DNA of 64,000 nucleotides, from positions 1,658-65,657 of the forward strand of contig CAJKWD010000002.1 of assembly GCA_905203475.1 (NCBI GenBank). Reading direction: 5' to 3'. The notes beneath the pieces are model-generated. The model was not told the DNA's origin. It did not search any database and saw nothing but the letters and a program-made list of their open reading frames with translations. Below are positions 1 to 43,745 of this stretch, piece by piece. The stretch's first letter is position 1, and each line of letters opens with the position of its first letter. A program made the translations under genes and the position numbers. Origin of the DNA: an uncultured Acholeplasmataceae bacterium (GTDB taxonomy: Bacteria; Bacillota_I; Bacilli_A; RF39; UBA660).

Positions 1-1142
1 ATGCAGCCACTGATGAAGATGGAACAAGTTATTATTACAGAGGAGCAGTAGCCGGAAACTATGTAAAATTAAATAATAAATATTACCGAGTAATTCGAGT
101 AAATGGAGATGGAACCTTAAGAATTATTTATGATGGAACAACCCCACATGAAAATGGAGAATCAAGTAGTAATCGTCAAGTAGGAACCAGTGCATTTAAT
201 CCATATTATTCCGATAATGGATATGTAGGATATATGTATGGAGATATGAGTCAGAATGTGATTACAGAGGGAGAAAATACATGGACTTATACTGGATTAT
301 CTGCAACCGCAAAATATTATTTTGGAACAAGTTATTCATACGATGAGTCAAAGAATGCCTTTACAGTAACAGAAGATATGGTTGCAGCAACAGTAACAGA
401 GTATGGCCAGAAGTATAATGATAAAAAATACTATACATGCTTTAGTACATCAAAGACAGGAACCTGTCAGAGACTTATTCATGTACAAAGTTATAGAAAC
501 GCGACACAAATGAGTGTCAAATCAGTAGAAAATTCATCAACGTCATATAATCAAGCACATCAGAATTTAAATAATAGTACAATGAAGAGTTATTTAGAAA
601 ATTGGTATACGAATAATTTAAGTAGTGTCGATGATAAGATATCAAAGACTACTTATTTCTGTAATAATCGTCAATTAGCAACGAAAGGAGATAATACATA
701 TAAGAATACAGGATATGGAATTACGCCATCATTCTATGGATATACAAGATTCTACGATTGGAATGGAAATGCGACAGGACCGACACTATTGTGTCCACAG
801 GATAATGATAAGTTTACCGTATCAACATCAACGGGAAATGGAAAACAAACAAAACCAATTGGATTAATTACAGCCGATGAAGTAAATATGGCCGGAGGAA
901 AGAGTGGTTCTAGAAACATGTTGTATTACTTGTATACAGGAACAGATTACTGGACCATGTCGCCGTCCTACTTCGTCAACAGTGCGTATGCGCACGAGTT
1001 CCTCGTGACGTCTTCCGGTGAGCTGAACGCTTGGAGCTATGTGACGTATGGTTACGGCGTCCGCCCAGTGATCAATTTAGATACAAAAAATATAAAATTT
1101 ACAGGAACAGGAACGATGCAAGATCCATATGTAATCGAATAA
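1..1142 (+). CDS. Secreted lectin-like protein, 5'-truncated by the window edge (C-terminal YW..SP...GVRPV domain, DUF1566/DUF6273-like)
   Basis: Frame 3 is open from base 3 (AATDEDGTSYYYRGAVAGNYVKLNNKYYRVIRVNGDGTLRIIYDG...), so the ORF-track start at 234 is internal. Paralogous in architecture to 42756-43745 (RVI/RII..DGT, YWTM, VRPV..L, G.G...DPY tail). Confidence 0.8.
   Translation, partial: AATDEDGTSYYYRGAVAGNYVKLNNKYYRVIRVNGDGTLRIIYDGTTPHENGESSSNRQVGTSAFNPYYSDNGYVGYMYGDMSQNVITEGENTWTYTGLSATAKYYFGTSYSYDESKNAFTVTEDMVAATVTEYGQKYNDKKYYTCFSTSKTGTCQRLIHVQSYRNATQMSVKSVENSSTSYNQAHQNLNNSTMKSYLENWYTNNLSSVDDKISKTTYFCNNRQLATKGDNTYKNTGYGITPSFYGYTRFYDWNGNATGPTLLCPQDNDKFTVSTSTGNGKQTKPIGLITADEVNMAGGKSGSRNMLYYLYTGTDYWTMSPSYFVNSAYAHEFLVTSSGELNAWSYVTYGYGVRPVINLDTKNIKFTGTGTMQDPYVIE
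950..1072 (+). other. GC-rich, A-poor codon patch; candidate DGR variable region (VR)
   Basis: Positions 961-1070 are 65/110 G+C with only 17/110 A, against 22/60 and 19/70 G+C in the flanks. 28 of 37 codons end in G/C and 15 are NNC. The patch ends in GGCGTCCGCCC. Confidence 0.45.
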
Positions 1143-1164
1143 AAAGAGTTTGAAAACTCTTTTT
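1143..1164 (+). terminator. Rho-independent terminator
   Basis: aaagagtt-tgaa-aactcttt hairpin directly after the stop codon, followed by a T-rich run. Confidence 0.65.
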
Positions 1165-1227
1165 ATATGTTTTAAAATCATATTGCATTTTCGATATGAA
1201 CTTGATATGATGTTGGAGGAAAGTAGG

Positions 1228-1629
1228 ATGAATATGAAAAAGTTTATTATTTTATTTATATGTTTATTATGCTTTACTACAGGTTGTGAAGATAAAAATG
1301 TAATTGAAAAAACAAATGCTGGATATACACATATTTCTATGGATGTAGCTAAGGAATATATGAAGGAACAAGATACTATTGTAGTTGATGTTAGAACAGA
1401 AGAAGAATATGAAACAGGACATATTAGAGGAGCGATTAATATTCCTCTTCATGCGATAGATGGAACAGTGGTAGGAAAGTTAAAAGACTATAATCAAAAA
1501 ATACTTGTCTATTGTGAAAGTGGAAACCGTAGTATTCAGGCAAGTGCTAAATTAGCATCTCTTGGTTATAAAAATGTATACGAAATGGGTGGTATACAAG
1601 ATTACGATGGAGAATTGAGTCAGTCATGA
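1228..1629 (+). CDS. Rhodanese-domain lipoprotein
   Basis: GGAGGA RBS 7 nt upstream of ATG 1228. Lipobox LLCFTTGC. Rhodanese active-site loop CESGNR and GHIRGAINIP. Confidence 0.85.
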   Translation: MNMKKFIILFICLLCFTTGCEDKNVIEKTNAGYTHISMDVAKEYMKEQDTIVVDVRTEEEYETGHIRGAINIPLHAIDGTVVGKLKDYNQKILVYCESGNRSIQASAKLASLGYKNVYEMGGIQDYDGELSQS

Positions 1630-2249
1630 AAATAGATTCTTTAAAAACAATCAATGAGGAAGAAATGGAAGATACTTTAGAATATATAAAAATGTCTGAG
1701 CAAGAGCAATTTGATTTTTCTGGTATTACGGAATGTAATCATTGCTATTTTGAAAAAGTTCAATTTACTGATTTACACTTTCAAAATATTTCTTGTTATG
1801 ATGTGGTATTTAAAAATTGTGATTTTTCTAATGTTATATGGAATTCCCATTCTGATTTTGCAGGTCCATTTTTGAATCATGTGACTTTTGAAAATTGTAA
1901 AATGGTTGGAACTGATTTTGGGATGACGGCTTTAAAGAAAGTAACGTTTCAAAATTGTGTAGGTCGTTATGTGAATTTTTCTTTCGTAACGATGAGAGAA
2001 GTGAAAATATTATCTTGCTCTTTTCAAAACATGATATTGCAAGATACGACTTGTAAAAAATTATTATTGCAAGAAAATGAATTATTTGGACTAGAATTAT
2101 TACATACATCATTAAAAGATGTCGATATGACTAGTAATCATATGGATGGATTAAAAACAGATTTAGAAAGTATTCAAGGAATGATTGTGAATCCTGAACA
2201 AGCATTACAATTATCTAAATTATTAGGAATTATAGTGAAAAATCTATAA
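1626..2249 (+). CDS. Pentapeptide-repeat protein, Qnr/MfpA-like
   Basis: Tandem A(D/N)LxX-type pentapeptides over ~150 aa. The C-terminal IQGMIVNPEQALQLSKLLGIIV resembles the Qnr C-terminal dimerisation helix. ATGA overlap with the rhodanese stop codon. Confidence 0.75.
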   Translation: MKIDSLKTINEEEMEDTLEYIKMSEQEQFDFSGITECNHCYFEKVQFTDLHFQNISCYDVVFKNCDFSNVIWNSHSDFAGPFLNHVTFENCKMVGTDFGMTALKKVTFQNCVGRYVNFSFVTMREVKILSCSFQNMILQDTTCKKLLLQENELFGLELLHTSLKDVDMTSNHMDGLKTDLESIQGMIVNPEQALQLSKLLGIIVKNL

Positions 2250-2318
2250 TTCTTTTTTTATGACAAAATAGTCATGACAGAATTTGAATTTATAGTATAA
2301 TAATTTTAGGTGATATAC

Positions 2319-2999
2319 ATGCAGAAATTACTGATTGTAGAAGACGATGAAACAATTCGTTTTGGGTTAAAGTATTATTTAGAACAAGAAGGTTTTGATG
2401 TCTACCAAGCATCTACTGTGAAAGAAGCATATGATAAATTTTCTAAAACGAATTTTGATATTGTTTTATTAGATTTAAATTTACCGGACGGGAATGGTTT
2501 TGATTTATATCGTGATATGAAAAAAGTAAAAGAGGTACCAACTATCTTTTTAACAGCCAATGATCAAGAAGTATCTATTGTTATGGGACTAGATATGGGA
2601 GCAGATGATTATATTACAAAACCATTTAAGGTAAGAGAGTTATTATCGCGTATTAAGACAGTATTACGTCGTAGTGGGAAAAAACAGGATAATACCATTC
2701 AAGTTGGAAATGTTGTATTAGATATGCATCAAGCGAAAGTATTTAAAAATGGGGTTGATGTAATGTTAACAGCACTTGAGTATAAAATATTTTTAACATT
2801 GGCATTAAATTATAATCAAGTATTAAAAAGAGAAAGTATTTTAGCAAACATTTGGGATGTCAATGAAGAATATGTCAATGATAATACACTAACAGTATAT
2901 ATTAAGAGAATTCGTGAAAAGATTGAAGATGATCCGAATCATCCTCGTATTATCCAAACAGTTCGCAAATTAGGTTACAAAGTAGGTGACCCATGTTAG
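2319..2999 (+). CDS. OmpR-family response regulator
   Basis: LLIVEDDE...DLNLPDGNG receiver domain plus a winged-helix C-terminus (RKLGYKV). AGGTGA RBS 5 nt upstream of ATG 2319. Confidence 0.9.
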   Translation: MQKLLIVEDDETIRFGLKYYLEQEGFDVYQASTVKEAYDKFSKTNFDIVLLDLNLPDGNGFDLYRDMKKVKEVPTIFLTANDQEVSIVMGLDMGADDYITKPFKVRELLSRIKTVLRRSGKKQDNTIQVGNVVLDMHQAKVFKNGVDVMLTALEYKIFLTLALNYNQVLKRESILANIWDVNEEYVNDNTLTVYIKRIREKIEDDPNHPRIIQTVRKLGYKVGDPC

Positions 3000-4216
3000 G
3001 AAAAAGAAGAAAACAATTTCTTTTATTTGAATTTCTTCTCTTTTGTTTTTGTATTTTATTTGCTTTTATGATGACCAAAGTGACAACGGATATTTATCAA
3101 AAACATATTTATGAGCGAGAAGGAACGTTATTAAAAAGAGTCATAGAAGAACATCCGGAAACAGAAGAAGAAGTTATTCAGCTTTATGAACAAACCGATT
3201 TTCGTAAAATAGATACAAGTATTTTAGAAAAATATGGGTATGTAACGAGTGATGATTTAAGATATTTTCAAGATATAAAACAAGCACATCGTAATTTGTT
3301 AATATCACAAATTATTTTTGTAACTATGTTATTTGTAATACTGAATATTGCTTATATTTGGTATCAATGGAATCAAGATCGTAAATTAAAAGAATTAGAT
3401 CAATATTTATTAGCTGTTTTAGCAGGAAATTATAATCTGGATATTAGAGATTATCAAGATGGTATTTTAAGTTCTTTAAAAAACGATGTATATAAAATGA
3501 GTGTGTTATTAAAAGAAGATAAAGAAAGAGCAATAGAACAACAAAAATATTTAGAAAGTGTTTTATCAGATATTTCTCATCAATTAAGAACACCACTTAC
3601 GAGTATGTATGTTATGAATGATTTGTTGAGTGATGGCAAAGTACGAGGTAAACAAAAGAAAGAGATTTTAAATAAAAATCGTGCACAATTAGAAAGAATA
3701 GAATGGTTAATTACTACTTTATTAAAAATGTCTCGTATTGATGCGGGAACAGTTGTTTTTAAAGAGGAAAAAGTAACAACGAAGGAATTGATTAAAAAAG
3801 CTTTAGAACCGATTAATATACCTATAGAATTAAAAAAACAGACGATATTAATTGTTGGTGATAAAAAGAGTACTGTATTGTTAGATAAAAAGTGGACAGT
3901 GGAAGCATTTGTCAATATTTTAAAGAATGCTCATGAACATACATCTGTAGGGGGAATGATTATTATTAAAATTACTGATAATCCTTTATTTACAGAATTT
4001 TTAATTCAAGATAATGGAACGGGCATTGCCAAAGAAGATTTACCACATATTTTTGAACGTTTTTATAAAGGTAAAAACTCATCGAGTGAATCCATTGGGA
4101 TTGGATTAAATATGTCTAAGACGATTATTCAAAAAGAAAATGGAACGATTATGGTAGAAAGTACAGAAGGGAAGGGAACTACTTTTACAATCCGTTTTTA
4201 TAAAGCAGATATTTAA
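2993..4216 (+). CDS. Sensor histidine kinase
   Basis: Two TM segments flank a ~85-aa loop. H-box SHQLRTPLTS. HATPase N, G1 and G2 boxes (DNGTGI, GIGLNM). Confidence 0.9.
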   Translation: MLGKRRKQFLLFEFLLFCFCILFAFMMTKVTTDIYQKHIYEREGTLLKRVIEEHPETEEEVIQLYEQTDFRKIDTSILEKYGYVTSDDLRYFQDIKQAHRNLLISQIIFVTMLFVILNIAYIWYQWNQDRKLKELDQYLLAVLAGNYNLDIRDYQDGILSSLKNDVYKMSVLLKEDKERAIEQQKYLESVLSDISHQLRTPLTSMYVMNDLLSDGKVRGKQKKEILNKNRAQLERIEWLITTLLKMSRIDAGTVVFKEEKVTTKELIKKALEPINIPIELKKQTILIVGDKKSTVLLDKKWTVEAFVNILKNAHEHTSVGGMIIIKITDNPLFTEFLIQDNGTGIAKEDLPHIFERFYKGKNSSSESIGIGLNMSKTIIQKENGTIMVESTEGKGTTFTIRFYKADI

Positions 4217-4232
4217 GTGACAATTCTGTCAC
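4217..4232. promoter_or_regulatory. Perfect inverted repeat GTGACA-N4-TGTCAC (candidate response-regulator operator; could also act as the HK terminator stem)
   Basis: Lies upstream of an ABC-operon promoter that has a poor -35. TGTCAC..GTCATA half-sites follow at 4239-4256. A related ATGACAaaataGTCATGACA lies upstream of the RR gene (2260-2279). Confidence 0.4.
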
Positions 4233-4289
4233 TCTTTTTGTCACGATAGAGTCATATCTATTTACTATACTGTAGGTGTAGGTGATAAT

Positions 4290-4772
4290 ATGACAAAGTG
4301 TAAATATGAAAGATTGATTATGATTGCAATTATTGTAGGAGTGATTGGTATATTAGGGTTTAGTGAATATTGTATGGCACAAAAAGAAGATAAGATAGAT
4401 AAGCCCACGACAGAAAAAGTAAGCAATCAAGATGATATGGCAACATATCACAATATTATAGTTGCGAAAGAAGTACTCACAGATTTGAAAAAGATGAGTA
4501 AATGTGCTGGTCGTGATCATATCGAATTACTTACCCAAACAGGATATCAGGAAAATGGAACAGAGGAAGAAAAAAGTGGTTTATTAATTCGTTTTGGAAG
4601 TAATGACGCAGAAGAAAATCAGTTCATTCAAGAGTGGTTAGAACAACATGGTTGGCAGTACGGATTTGTCCAATTTCAACAAGAGGATTACTTATTATAT
4701 CGTTATACAGGACGTGATATTGCAAAATCAATTCATGAGGCAAATGTGACATTTTCTGAGTACTTAAAATAG
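4290..4772 (+). CDS. Membrane-anchored protein with a degenerate VanY/M15B-like C-terminal half
   Basis: N-terminal TM segment. WLEQHGWQYGFV...YRYTGRDIAKSI...FSEYL matches the VanY C-terminal pattern, but the SxHxxGxAxD and EPWH metal-ligand motifs are not visible. Confidence 0.5.
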   Translation: MTKCKYERLIMIAIIVGVIGILGFSEYCMAQKEDKIDKPTTEKVSNQDDMATYHNIIVAKEVLTDLKKMSKCAGRDHIELLTQTGYQENGTEEEKSGLLIRFGSNDAEENQFIQEWLEQHGWQYGFVQFQQEDYLLYRYTGRDIAKSIHEANVTFSEYLK

Positions 4773-4785
4773 AGAGGATGAAAGT

Positions 4786-5466
4786 ATGGAAATATTAAAG
4801 GTTGAGCATTTAACAAAAACGTATGGTACTGGCAAGACACAAGTAAAAGCATTAGATGATGTTAGCTTTTCCGTTGAAAAAGGAGAGTTTATTGCGATTG
4901 TTGGAGCGAGTGGAAGCGGGAAAAGTACTTTATTACATTTAATTGGAGCAGTAGATAAACCGACAAGTGGGAAGGTTTATGTAGAGGGAGAAGATATTTT
5001 TAAACTCAATGAAACAAATCTGGCGATTTTCCGTCGCCGTCAAGTAGGTTTAATCTATCAATTTTATAATTTAATTCCAATTTTGGATGTAAAAGAAAAT
5101 ATGACATTACCTGTTTTATTAGATGGTAAGCAAGTAGAAGAAGATTATTTGAATGAGTTAATTCAAATTTTAGGGTTAGGAAAAAGAATGAATCATCTTC
5201 CAAATGAATTATCAGGAGGAGAACAACAGCGTGTATCTATCGGCCGAGCTCTTATGAATCATCCTGTTGTTTTATTAGCAGATGAACCAACAGGAAATTT
5301 GGATAGTAAAGCAAGTGCTGAAATTATGAAATTATTAAGGCTTTCTAATCAGAAATATAAACAGACAATTATTATGATTACTCATGATTATAATCTGGCT
5401 TTAACTGCAGATCGTATTATTGAAATAAAAGATGGAAAAATTATAAAAGATGAGAAGGTGAGATAA
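4786..5466 (+). CDS. ABC transporter ATP-binding protein (MacB/BceA-like)
   Basis: Walker A GASGSGKST, signature LSGGEQQR, Walker B LLADEPT. Confidence 0.95.
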   Translation: MEILKVEHLTKTYGTGKTQVKALDDVSFSVEKGEFIAIVGASGSGKSTLLHLIGAVDKPTSGKVYVEGEDIFKLNETNLAIFRRRQVGLIYQFYNLIPILDVKENMTLPVLLDGKQVEEDYLNELIQILGLGKRMNHLPNELSGGEQQRVSIGRALMNHPVVLLADEPTGNLDSKASAEIMKLLRLSNQKYKQTIIMITHDYNLALTADRIIEIKDGKIIKDEKVR

Positions 5467-5468
5467 CC

Positions 5469-8060
5469 TTGAACATATTAAATAAATTAACGATAAAAGA
5501 ATTAAAAATGAATAAACAGCGTACGATTGTAACATTAATAGGGGTTATTTTATCTTGTGCTTTAATGGTTGGCATTGGACTTATTTTCTCCAGTGCCCAA
5601 AAAAATATGTTAGATTCGATTGTCAGTTATTCAGGAGATTATCATGTCCGTTTTGATAATGTTAAAAAAGAAGATATTTCTATAGTGAAAAATAATGTGA
5701 AAGTAAAAAAATATGCGTATACAAATGATATTAGCTATGCAATCGGAAATAGTGAACAAGAAGATGACTTTTTCTTTTTATTAAGAGGAATGAATGATAC
5801 TTATCATGCGTCATTTCGCAATGTAAAAGGGAAGTATCCTAAAAAAGACAATGAAATATTAGTACCTGATACATTGTTAAAACAATATGATCCTTATTTA
5901 AAGATTGGAGATTCTATTACTCTTAATCTTGGTAAAAGATATTTAAATGGAGAAGAAACAACAGAGTCAGTCAGAAGTACAGAAGAAACATTTGAAGTAT
6001 CGGATACGAAGACTTATAAAATTGTTGGAACATATGAATATGATGCATATCCACAAATGTATTATAGCGAATTATATATTTTATATACTGGAGAGAAACT
6101 GAATACTTCTACAGCCAGATTATTTATCACATATAAAAATATGAATGATACTTATCGGGAATCAGAACATATCGCATCATTATTAGGGTTTGAAGAAAGT
6201 GGAACTGGATTATATCAAAATATGACATATCACCAAGAGTATTTATCAGTATCAGGACATAGTCGTTATGGGAACTATAATACGACAATGGTAATTATAT
6301 TAGGTATTGTACTCAGTTTAATCTCGATTGCTTGTATTATAGTAATTTATAATTCTTTTCATATTTCTGTTATGGAAAGAAAGAAACAATTTGGTATTTT
6401 TGCAAGTATTGGTGCAACGAAAAATCAGTTAATGAAAACAGTATTCTTAGAAGCATTGATTGTTGCACTCCTTGGTATTCCAATTGGTCTTTTATCAGGT
6501 ATGTTAGGTATTAAAATAACATTAGATATCATCGCAAAATTAGCACCTGATTTATTTAGTATTCCACTTACATTTTATGTTTATCCAATTTTTATTATTG
6601 TACCAGTTATATTTATGCTAATTGTCATCTTCATTTCTGCTTATTTACCAGCACGTAAAGCAGGAAAAATGCAACCGTTGGAAGCAATTCGCCAAAATGA
6701 TGATATAAAGATTGAAAAGAAAAAGATGAAAACATCAAAGATGATTCGTAAAATATTTGGAATTGAAGGAGAGATTGCTCTAAAAAATATTAAGAGAAAC
6801 CGTAAGAAATATCGTGTGACTGTTGTATCTTTATTTATTAGTATTGTTTTATTTGTTACATTTTCTGGGTTATTGAGATATGGGTTATATGGAACAGATA
6901 CTGCCTTTCAGAATGCAGAATACGATGCGATGGTATCTGTGACTGCTCCAACTTATGATGATATAAAGCCCGTTATGGAACGATTAAAAAAAGTAAAAGG
7001 TCCAGAACAGGCTAAAGAAATTCATTGGACTTATGCGACAACTAAAATAGATTCTTCTACTTTTTATGAAGAATACCAAAAACAAATGAGTGATAATATA
7101 GATTATGATAGTAAAACAACTGATATGGGAGTTATAATTGCTACGATTGATCAAAAAGATTATGAAAAATTACTAGAGGAATATAAACAAGAAGAGGGTA
7201 CTACTTTCTTAATCAATCAAATTAATTTTTCAAGTGTTAATGGTAAAACAAGAAAAACATATTATAATCGTATATTTAAACCAGATTCCATTTCCAGCAT
7301 AATCCCTTATTGTGAGAAATATGATGGAAATGATAATTATCATGTGGAACAATGCTACGAAGCAATCGAACATATTACTATGATTGAAACAGTTCCATAT
7401 GGCTTGAAAAATGTCATTTCTGATCCTGGTTCATTTGTTATTGTTGTACCAGAATCTATGTATCGTCAATTTGTCACAACAGCGTTAGAAAAAGATTATT
7501 TAATTGGTACAAATGATTTTCTTTATATGAATGGAACAAATTTTAAAAATATAGAGAAAGAAATAAAAAACATCGGAGATGAAGGCATTGTTGGTGATGT
7601 CTATTATGAGAATGTCGAAGAAAGCGTTGCTAGAACAAATCGTATTATTTTAGCAATCAAAATATTATTATATGGATTTATTGCTTTAGTGACATTTATT
7701 GGTATTACAAGTGTATTTAATACAATTGTAACTTCATTAGCACTTCGTAAAAGAGAATTCGCAATGTTAAGAAGTGTAGGATTAAGTCCCAAAGGCTTTC
7801 ATAAGATATTGTTTTTAGAGAGTTTCTTCTTCGTTGCAAAAGCATATTTAGTTGCACTCCCTGTATCTTTACTTTTAATTGCACTCATTCATTATGCATT
7901 TAATTTTTCGATGTATATTGAATCGGTATTAATTCCGTGGGATGCTGTATTGATTGCTCTGTTATTCTCATATGCTATTGTCTTAATTACAACGTTCTAT
8001 GCGACAAAAAAAATGAGAACTGCTAATATTTTAGAATCAATACGAGAGGAGAATATTTAA
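5469..8060 (+). CDS. FtsX-family ABC permease with two MacB-type repeats (863 aa)
   Basis: TTG start 2 nt after the ATPase stop codon. Two large extracytoplasmic domains, each followed by a 3-TM FtsX bundle. Confidence 0.85.
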   Translation: MNILNKLTIKELKMNKQRTIVTLIGVILSCALMVGIGLIFSSAQKNMLDSIVSYSGDYHVRFDNVKKEDISIVKNNVKVKKYAYTNDISYAIGNSEQEDDFFFLLRGMNDTYHASFRNVKGKYPKKDNEILVPDTLLKQYDPYLKIGDSITLNLGKRYLNGEETTESVRSTEETFEVSDTKTYKIVGTYEYDAYPQMYYSELYILYTGEKLNTSTARLFITYKNMNDTYRESEHIASLLGFEESGTGLYQNMTYHQEYLSVSGHSRYGNYNTTMVIILGIVLSLISIACIIVIYNSFHISVMERKKQFGIFASIGATKNQLMKTVFLEALIVALLGIPIGLLSGMLGIKITLDIIAKLAPDLFSIPLTFYVYPIFIIVPVIFMLIVIFISAYLPARKAGKMQPLEAIRQNDDIKIEKKKMKTSKMIRKIFGIEGEIALKNIKRNRKKYRVTVVSLFISIVLFVTFSGLLRYGLYGTDTAFQNAEYDAMVSVTAPTYDDIKPVMERLKKVKGPEQAKEIHWTYATTKIDSSTFYEEYQKQMSDNIDYDSKTTDMGVIIATIDQKDYEKLLEEYKQEEGTTFLINQINFSSVNGKTRKTYYNRIFKPDSISSIIPYCEKYDGNDNYHVEQCYEAIEHITMIETVPYGLKNVISDPGSFVIVVPESMYRQFVTTALEKDYLIGTNDFLYMNGTNFKNIEKEIKNIGDEGIVGDVYYENVEESVARTNRIILAIKILLYGFIALVTFIGITSVFNTIVTSLALRKREFAMLRSVGLSPKGFHKILFLESFFFVAKAYLVALPVSLLLIALIHYAFNFSMYIESVLIPWDAVLIALLFSYAIVLITTFYATKKMRTANILESIREENI

Positions 8061-42755: not shown

Positions 42756-43745
42756 ATGAGAAAAATTCGTAGAAGAAAAAATAGTGTGAGATCTATTATT
42801 ATCTTAAGTATGTTATGTTTTGTAACAATGGGGATTGGGTATAGTTATTTACAAGAAACTTTAAATGTACATGTTCAAGTCACAAAGAAAGATCAACGGA
42901 TAGATATTACCGAGGATGTTGTCACATCTGGAAGTGGATTATATCAAGATTCATACGAATATGGCAGATATGTTTATAGGGGAAATGAACCTAATAATTA
43001 TATTCAGTTTAATGATGAATTATGGAGAATTATAGCAAAAGAAACAGATGGAACTTACAAAATTGTTCACAATAGTTTGTCAGAGGAACGCGTATATGAT
43101 GAAACAGGCTATAGAGCGACAACTAATAACACATATTGTGATAAGCCTCAATATGGATGTAATATTTTTGGAAAAGTAAATGGTATTTTTACATCTGCTA
43201 ATAAAAGTGGTACTATTACACAAGATTCTAGTCTTGCCAGTTATTTAAATAGTACATATTATACAAAGCTAAGTAGTACTGCTCAAAATCTAATTCAAGT
43301 ACATAATTTTAATATTGGAAATGTGATTCATATGCCAAAGGCAGATAACGATAGTATTGCAAAAAATATTGAAGATGAGAAGGCGTACCAGTGGGAAGGC
43401 AAAGTAGGGCTCATAAATGTAACAGATTATTTGAGAGCGACTATAAATAATGAATGTAAGTCAGCGTCATATGATAATTCAACAAATGATGCGTGTACAT
43501 CTTATTTAGTGGAAGACTTAGATGTGAATCAACATTATTGGACTATGAATGGTTATTCTGGTGAAACAAGTGCTTCTTCTAATGCCGTTTGGTATGTCAG
43601 TCATTTTAGTTCCGGATTTCGTTTAAGAAATATCGTTGCTAATTCTGCTTCACGTTATGTTCGTCCAGTAGTTTATTTAAAAGCAGATATTCAATTTATA
43701 GATGGAAAGGGAACAGAAAGTGATCCATATATCATCACTTTATAA
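42756..43745 (+). CDS. Secreted lectin-like protein, paralog of the 1-1142 gene (non-diversified copy)
   Basis: N-terminal signal-anchor. ELWRIIAKETDGTYKIV, HYWTMNGYS, RYVRPVVYLK, GKGTESDPYIITL. AAGGAG RBS. Confidence 0.85.
   Translation: MRKIRRRKNSVRSIIILSMLCFVTMGIGYSYLQETLNVHVQVTKKDQRIDITEDVVTSGSGLYQDSYEYGRYVYRGNEPNNYIQFNDELWRIIAKETDGTYKIVHNSLSEERVYDETGYRATTNNTYCDKPQYGCNIFGKVNGIFTSANKSGTITQDSSLASYLNSTYYTKLSSTAQNLIQVHNFNIGNVIHMPKADNDSIAKNIEDEKAYQWEGKVGLINVTDYLRATINNECKSASYDNSTNDACTSYLVEDLDVNQHYWTMNGYSGETSASSNAVWYVSHFSSGFRLRNIVANSASRYVRPVVYLKADIQFIDGKGTESDPYIITL

Follow-up and report, generated by a model that had tools for sequence, protein, structure and literature searches.

Why should one gene of an AT-rich bacterial genome carry, close to its 3' end, a short island of GC-rich and adenine-poor DNA? 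The question is posed by the opening kilobase of a 64-kb stretch of DNA from an uncultured Acholeplasmataceae bacterium (hereafter, the window), where an incomplete gene includes such a patch at positions 961-1070. Diversity-generating retroelements (DGRs) are known systems that rewrite the binding tip of a surface protein, and we conclude, with a probability of roughly 90%, that positions 958-1067 are the variable region (VR) of a DGR target gene and were written by such an element. A sequence-only reading of the locus had already proposed a DGR, and the proposal is supported here by a VR that departs from a template repeat (TR) of related assemblies at template adenines only, by a DGR cassette in close relatives, and by hypervariability that is confined to the patch. 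The features on which the argument turns are the following.

3-1142 (+): 3' part of the DGR target gene, 379 codons plus stop, from the open reading frame (ORF) and its translation
958-1067 (+): VR, the TR-homologous stretch, from the gap-free alignment to the TR of two related contigs, L037 and L147
958-968 (+): 5' GC-rich, adenine-free anchor TGTCGCCGTCC, common to the TR and all VRs
969-1055 (+): mutagenised core, from a codon-by-codon TR/VR table
1056-1066 (+): 3' GC-rich, adenine-free anchor GGCGTCCGCCC, which ends every VR and every TR unit
1067-1077 (+): VR-specific 3' flank AGTGATCAATT, coding for P-V-I-N, at the place where TR units carry AATTTCC

By direct count, the patch holds 65 G or C (0.591) and 17 A (0.155) among its 110 nucleotides, between flanks with 22/60 G+C (901-960) and 19/70 G+C (1071-1140), in a window that averages 31.1% G+C and 37.0% A overall. 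It forms the top G+C peak among all 110-nt segments of the 64 kb (mean 0.311, standard deviation 0.050, z ~5.6), with the runner-up peak at 0.482. Codon choice follows the same bias: among the 37 codons between 960 and 1070, the third base is G or C in 28 and C (NNC) in 15, compared with 75 G/C-ending codons among the 342 in the remainder of the gene (22%; Fisher P=1e-10). The patch and flank counts of the sequence-only reading were reproduced exactly, as were its codon counts and the peptide it gave for the patch, SPSYFVNSAYAHEFLVTSSGELNAWSYVTYGYGVRPV; by a blastn search at word size 7, the patch has no further copy in the window.

A template search, in which one genome per GTDB species was scanned for the two anchors 75-105 nt apart, returned adenine-poor copies within genes and adenine-rich copies (25-30% A) in non-coding DNA, the latter in low-GC metagenome-assembled genomes (MAGs) labelled Bacilli, Mycoplasmatota or Tenericutes. 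The matching TR is 109 nt long and comes from related gut-Bacilli assemblies: it occupies positions 1488-1596 of L147, a human-gut metagenome contig, and the same sequence is present in two copies in L037. Aligned to window positions 958-1066, it is identical at 98 of 109 positions without gaps, and every one of the 11 mismatches falls on a TR adenine; with 27 A among the 109 TR positions, this corresponds to a hypergeometric P=3.4e-8, and none of the 82 non-adenine positions differs from the window VR. The adenines are replaced by T (seven times), G (three times) and C (once), and the asymmetry is therefore specific to template A. The limits of homology are sharp, beginning at 958 and ending at 1067 between unrelated flanks. 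The TR reads TGTCGCCGTCCAACTTCAACAACAATGCGAATGCGAACGAG...GGCGTCCGCCCAATTTCC, and the 109-nt TR unit is TGTCGCCGTCCAACTTCAACAACAATGCGAATGCGAACGAGTTCCACGTGACGTCTTCCGGTGAGCTGAACGCTTGGAACAATGTGACGAATGGTAACGGCGTCCGCCC followed by AATTTCC. Pairs of VR and TR lying in cis in related MAGs behave in the same manner, with mismatches at adenines in 14/14 (L036), 14/14 (L037), 12/12 (L043) and 6/6 (L054) cases.

At the codon level, the changed positions (969, 975, 976, 982, 987, 993, 1003, 1036, 1038, 1047 and 1053) rewrite 10 of the 12 template AAY (Asn) codons and one CAC, with the replacements N>Y,V,S,Y,H; H>L; N>S,Y,Y,Y. The AAC codons at 978 and 1026 are unaltered from the template, and the scaffold codons are all identical to the TR, synonymous sites included. 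The 5' anchor TGTCGCCGTCC is identical in the VRs of proteins that share only 55% identity overall and in all TR units of the subgroup. At the other end, 25 codons ahead of the stop, the sequence-only reading had seen a GC-rich end resembling an initiation of mutagenic homing (IMH) element: GGCGTCCGCCC is indeed GC-rich and ends the VR, but it is not VR-specific, being present in the TR as well, and is thus the GC part of an IMH-like end that serves as common 3' anchor of TR and VR. Beyond it, the window VR continues with AGTGATCAAT and the TR with AATTTCC, and this division holds throughout the set, as VR-context units are followed by an AGTKRTC-like sequence in 24/24 cases and TR-context units by AATTTCC in 19/19. 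From these alignments the 3' flank AGTGATCAATT is a candidate discriminator between VR and TR that may take part in target recognition.

The same related contigs place the TR in a DGR cassette. In L147, whose target gene is 93.1% identical to window positions 1-1143, 250 nt separate this gene from the non-coding 109-nt TR downstream of it, and the order along the contig is target, hairpin, 112-nt TR, 109-nt TR, a gene for a MutS-like (MSL) protein, Avd, a 221-aa gene, reverse transcriptase (RT) and Aminotran_5. The RT, 1.6 kb downstream of the TR, is intact (367 aa; RVT_1, E=8e-19), with IGNETSQ at residue 224 and YMDD at 256. In L037, adenine-rich units precede, on one strand, the genes for a 147-aa MutS-domain-I protein, a 117-aa bAvd, a 220-aa membrane-anchored protein and an RVT_1 RT that is frameshifted; the same set recurs in eight further loci, and the arrangement of TR and DGR-type RT is also found in L036, L050, L054, L060, L078, L082, L084 and L123. 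The MSL assignment rests on PF01624 (E=5e-8, on the L037 and L073 proteins, which are 88-100% identical to that of L147), and that of Avd on PF22296 (E=3e-13) and NCBIfam DivGenRetAVD (E=3e-12, below the curated cut-off). By tblastn against GenBank phage records, the L147 RT matches DGR-bearing phages, including Bordetella phages and phage nd12, at 29-35% identity, and phage DGR RTs are its nearest annotated relatives. A TR of about 110 nt with adenine-only mismatches beside a DGR-type RT and avd, the counterpart that the sequence-only reading had proposed to look for, was thus found in the related assemblies L147 and L037.

Several further observations concern these cassettes. In the MAG UMGS2016 (L073 1-1140), the cassette is decayed: TR and MSL are intact with Aminotran_5 directly after them, Avd (of 117 aa) and the RT C-terminus (of 367 aa) align only as ~30-aa fragments, and an IS-type transposase lies nearby at 3033-4532. 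The ~220-aa protein with its N-terminal membrane anchor (p220), encoded between avd and RT in L037 (1627-2289, minus strand) and L147 (2572-3237), recurs in L098 (1567-908), L006 (11358-12008) and L015 (2849-3349), and is also encoded directly after target genes lacking a cassette, and therefore may act as partner to the target protein and not as a DGR accessory; a 194-aa gene in a similar place after the target in L119 (2047-2631) resembles it by position alone, and tblastn finds no p220 homologue in the window. A supposed TR of the 112-nt class in L123 and L135 was dropped as a template, being a chimera of VR 5' and TR 3' parts: positions 1-181 of both contigs, at the contig start, fuse the VR 5' flank of a target gene to a TR 3' flank, which is either an assembly collapse of the repeat or a real product of recombination between VR and TR.

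Comparison of homologues supports the same boundaries. In a protein alignment of homologues 82-86% identical overall, variation is confined to the patch, and the hypervariable columns coincide with the changed TR/VR codons within a fixed scaffold, SPSxFxxxxxAxxxxVTxSGxLxxWxxVxxxxGVRPV. Genes for homologues at other genomic positions, and for proteins sharing only 55% identity, carry the same GC-rich, adenine-poor island with identical, adenine-free ends (TGTCGCCGTCC and GGYGTCCGCCC). Against L147, the window differs by 6.3% outside the VR, with 42 of 65 differences at codon position 3, and by 12.8% inside it, with 12 of 14 differences at codon positions 1 and 2.

One strain contig (L001) was considered as a case of VR turnover and dropped, because its sequence is 13% diverged from the window already upstream of the VR (715-957), its VR belongs to the 112-nt class and the contig starts inside the gene. 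Its positions 1-390, aligned to window 715-1103, show ~13% divergence over the last 430 nt of the gene and not in the VR alone, with a VR 3 nt longer, and the following 11 kb are ~99.9% identical. Paralogue recombination or chimeric assembly may account for this, so that L001 is no clean evidence of turnover; the difference reflects either an exchange of the C-terminal domain between paralogues or a chimeric metagenome assembly.

The mechanism suggested by these comparisons is already known, and the patch is a further example of a DGR variable region. The RT would copy the 109-nt non-coding TR RNA into cDNA while misreading template adenines, and the cDNA would then replace its homologous counterpart close to the 3' terminus of the target; in a C-terminal, DUF6273-type (C-type-lectin-like) domain, roughly twelve Asn (AAY) codons would thereby be rewritten and the scaffold codons kept fixed. 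The cassette responsible (TR array, MutS-like gene, avd, 220-aa gene and RT) would lie outside the window. On this account the patch is GC-rich because a GC-rich TR, and not the AT-rich codon usage of the host, dictates its sequence, and it is poor in adenine because the template adenines have been replaced.

As for the target gene, its frame is open at the window's 5' edge, confirming that the 5' side lies outside. A contig 100% identical to window positions 1-6743 (L002) adds 1621 nt upstream, all of them inside the ORF and without reaching the start, and contigs break upstream of this addition; the protein, thus lengthened, has at least 920 aa. It is large and probably surface-exposed, may be secreted as the sequence-only reading had it, shows weak fn3/Big_13 matches in its upstream part, and belongs to a family with 4389 homologues at E<=0.001; its role would presumably be in ligand binding. 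The sequence-only reading had assigned the C-terminal domain to DUF1566, which does not hold: PF07603 has no Pfam match in the window protein or in any of 49 aligned family members. There is instead a weak match to DUF6273 (PF19789), at 21.1 bits against a gathering cut-off of 23.5 (E=3e-4, residues 308-360, spanning only the last third of the Pfam model), and DUF6273 matches 20 of the 49 members at E<=0.01 (best E 1e-7), from which profile matches we regard the domain as DUF6273-like and not DUF1566. AlphaFold models reach pLDDT 94 and 90, and their best Foldseek match is the DUF6273 domain of 9qa6 (E=1.4e-3 with the complete model as query and 8e-3 with its C-terminal domain, at probabilities of 0.84-0.92). 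Other matches are non-significant, namely the CD23 C-type lectin (E=2-6) and the Lcl C-terminal domain 8q4e (E=1.3), the latter being the only link to the DUF1566/Lcl family. Assignment to the C-lectin fold therefore follows the literature, in which DUF6273 is reported as C-lectin-like (PMC10743442), and not the Foldseek result.

Two more features belong to this gene or its family.

1139-1166 (+): hairpin with a 12-bp stem and 4-nt loop, ATAAAAAGAGTT-TGAA-AACTCTTTTTAT, from DNA folding and a self-blast inverted repeat
42756-43745 (+): distant, non-diversified relative, outside the DGR, from two short BLASTP blocks, a weak DUF6273 match and the lack of anchors

The hairpin overlaps the stop codon (1140-1142), reaches 24 nt past it and lies 72 nt downstream of the VR; a similar 12-bp/4-nt hairpin follows the cis target in L147. 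It is probably a terminator, not called by the terminator scan because it has too few G-C pairs, and by analogy with other DGRs it is possibly the hairpin known to aid retrohoming there. After the target gene and hairpin come, within 1150-4216, first a rhodanese-domain, lipoprotein-like gene, then a 207-aa gene without Pfam family and a two-component system (response regulator and histidine kinase), all of which are unrelated to the DGR. The gene at 42756-43745 had been put forward as a paralogue of the same architecture and an internal control for composition. Its equivalent segment is indeed AT-rich (0.35 G+C, with neither anchor present), but BLASTP aligns its product with that of the target gene over only two short blocks (32% and 52% identity), which makes the gene a distant relative of the target family and a loose control.

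Could the patch have arisen by other means? A recombination tract, in which a homologous gene of higher GC content donated the patch through gene conversion or horizontal transfer and no reverse transcription took part, would find some encouragement in the apparent exchange of the C-terminal domain between alleles (L001, 99.9% identical downstream and 13% diverged over 715-957) and in an L147 VR that has three bases typical of a second TR. The best donor, however, is a non-coding repeat beside an RT and not a gene, the homology ends sharply at 958 and 1067, 11/11 differences fall on donor adenines, and the carrier loci are all of ~30% G+C with no GC-rich donor genome in evidence, so that we hold this origin to be very improbable. 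Still further from the data is an origin in composition or selection, that is, a Tyr/Ser/Gly/Val-rich binding loop or a local codon bias with no templated process. The patch does code for many Y, S, G and V residues, but its synonymous sites are fixed to those of the TR (GCG, ACG, TCC, GTG) in a gene with 22% G or C at third codon positions, identical nucleotides persist across the genes of proteins that are only 55% identical, and the distant paralogue codes for a similar tail with AT-rich codons; the nucleotide identity to a non-coding TR refutes this explanation in practice, and we give it next to no credence.

More pertinent is the question of where the retroelement resides, and here a number of observations weigh against our reading of the patch as the work of a DGR. 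No TR, RT, Avd, MSL or TR-flanking RNA motif was found in the window, whether by blastn at word size 7 and fuzzy motif scans for the TR or by tblastn of the L037 RT, Avd, MSL and p220, which agrees with the lack of RT, Avd and TR already reported from the sequence. The recovered RT contigs all come from samples other than that of the window, and none is tied to the same genome; the candidates tried for such a link, P0121-P0124, were rejected since they too are all from other samples. In the assemblies that supply the matching TRs, the target gene shares only 88-93% identity with that of the window. Furthermore, the VR is identical in three assemblies of the strain (window, L002 and L003), with no ongoing diversification seen, and in the one variant contig of the strain, L001, the differences extend beyond the VR. 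Finally, two Foldseek searches of PDB, one of BFVD and a profile search of PDB sequences gave no significant placement in the C-type lectin fold.

Because the cassette parts are absent from the window, the gene is either served in trans, as a remote target, by a cassette located in another part of the genome, or it is an orphan whose cassette has been lost. The latter would be a fossil VR, written by an ancestor's DGR that has since been lost or inactivated, and now a frozen allele evolving as ordinary coding DNA. Every cassette part is missing from the window, the VR is the same in all three assemblies, cassettes do decay in this group (Avd and RT survive as ~30-aa fragments in L073, and the L037 RT is frameshifted), and Treponema denticola is known to retain targets where the DGR has been lost (PMC4891356); the TR-junction metagenome scan, which gave no contig from the L002 sample series, is a faint hint in the same direction. 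Yet VR and TR agree at all 82 non-adenine positions, against 6.3% divergence from L147 in the surrounding gene, and the last homing was therefore recent relative to the divergence of the gene. In addition, gut metagenomes commonly contain intact RTs with 87-90% identity to that of L037, and the cassettes of the lineage sit beside Aminotran_5, at a locus other than that of the window, so that their absence from these 64 kb is expected; consistently, tblastn with the cassette-flanking genes Aminotran_5, p182 and SDF gave no match in the window, which therefore does not include the cassette site. We regard the orphan state as a tentative possibility and lean somewhat towards a DGR that is still present and active in this genome.

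Other homologue contexts (L005, L006, L119, L120 and L121) have no RT within reach and represent other dispersed paralogues. Carriage of this TR type by phages was considered and rejected, as a scan of IMG/VR for the TR junction gave 0 matches. The anchor scan of the same database yielded two AT-rich, viral-classed contigs with adenine-poor, VR-like segments (L009 6887-6992, with an in-frame TAG, and L010 3216-3105), and neither has a TR in the sequence examined.

DGRs with remote targets, with MSL accessory genes and with DUF6273 targets have each been described (PMC5758913, PMC10743442), and among the closest known arrangements is that of the MSL 'Architecture D' DGRs (Wu et al. 2018, PMC5758913), in which, as in the cassette of the relatives, TR, a small MutS-domain-I protein, avd and RT lie on one strand; co-occurrence of MSL with avd was noted in the same DGR survey (PMC5758913). 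The present system differs from Architecture D in its TR array of 2-6 units, in the extra 220-aa membrane-anchored gene between avd and RT, and in its hosts, which are uncultured low-GC gut Bacilli/'Tenericutes' MAGs, and the window carries the target only. With the Treponema denticola DGR (TvpA; PMC5758913, PMC4891356) it shares a chromosomal, non-phage setting and scattered paralogous surface proteins with a C-terminal VR, and there, too, some genomes retain VRs without a working cassette (PMC4891356), but the accessory gene is HRDC in Treponema and MSL here, the target domain is DUF6273-like and there are several TRs.

The Bordetella phage BPP-1 system (Mtd/TR/Avd/Brt) is alike in its adenine-specific changes concentrated in AAY codons, its VR at the 3' end of the target, the GC-rich ends common to TR and VR, the combination of Avd with an IGxxxSQ RT and a structured RNA 3' of the TR. 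Unlike BPP-1, the element described here is not phage-borne, given the lack of TR-junction matches in IMG/VR, and its target is a remote one; an extended IMH/IMH* pair cannot be made out, and the hairpin lies ~70 nt from the VR and is not adjacent to it. DUF6273 targets of gut phages (the tentaclins of nd4/nd12 and those of Faecalibacterium prophages; PMC10743442, PMC11792537) are phage receptor-binding proteins, some with an N-terminal VR, whereas here the protein is chromosomal, has at least 920 aa and carries its VR at the C-terminus; its C-terminal domain had no tblastn match in 50,697 phage records. The N-terminal DUF6273 domain of the Thomasclavelia ramosa IgA protease (9qa6; PMC12402451), which gives the best structural match to the predicted model, aligns with a TM score of only about 0.3 and 13-17% sequence identity, and is not known to be DGR-diversified.

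The TRs of the lineage are themselves organised in tandem arrays of 2-6 different units with a period of ~165-170 nt, each unit made up of a leader (GGGATTAATCT...), a TR of 106, 109 or 112 nt, and AATTTCC. We found no description of such TR arrays in the literature. The arrays lie at the following places.

L132 5085-6220 (reverse-complement coordinates): TR array
L054 3166-3775: TR array
L037 3711-3265: TR array
L147 1314-1596: TR array
L137, L036, L050 and L141: further TR arrays

Internal units serve as templates for cis and remote VRs (L036, 14/14 differences at A; L101 against the 112-nt TR of L147, 16/17). Only after the last TR unit does a conserved region of ~200 nt follow, which was aligned from L147 (1597-1760) and 14 homologous regions; it has the conserved RNA core AGATTGGAAACAAGGTTA and folds into hairpins with compensatory changes (8/38 pairs, a covariation score reached by 0/500 shuffles), and an Rfam scan detected no family in the L147 TR region. 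Right after the TR, AAUUUCCU.CU is predicted to pair with AG.AGGAAGU ~70 nt downstream, in a helix that is invariant.

Some units in a TR context are adenine-poor (L037 3711-3603 on the minus strand, L054 3166-3274, L078 3799-3541, and the last units of L132 and L137). The one in L037 differs from a remote VR of the same MAG (L052 4991-4883) at 9 positions, with A in one of the partners at 9/9 (24% expected by composition); the two thus appear to descend, through mutagenesis, from a single adenine-richer template, and their comparison suggests that TR units are themselves sometimes mutagenised. The cis VR of L147 (1052-1160) differs from the 109-nt TR (1488-1596) at 12 adenine and 3 non-adenine positions, the latter carrying the bases of the neighbouring 112-nt TR at 1314-1425 (GAGCTTCAT), which could reflect template switching or recombination between array units.

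We therefore raise, as a conjecture we consider rather unlikely, a multiplexed DGR in which one RT and one structured RNA 3' of the last TR serve up to six different TRs. Its units would rewrite different dispersed paralogous surface proteins, including that of the window, with the template perhaps chosen according to which unit's AAUUUCC pairs with the one GGAAGU that lies downstream, and would occasionally be mutagenised. If true, such a system departs from the canonical scheme of one TR and one cassette, and the TR arrays of the relatives could be of interest for the understanding and engineering of DGR template choice.

The signal at this locus, a sharp GC-rich, adenine-poor island close to the 3' terminus of a gene within AT-rich genomic DNA, indicates that composition alone can flag a DGR target even when the retroelement lies outside the examined sequence, which is useful for annotating remote or orphan targets overlooked by RT-centred pipelines. 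For the family itself, the finding adds large DUF6273-tipped proteins of uncultured low-GC gut Bacilli, for which 4389 homologues were counted, to the known hypervariable surface proteins.

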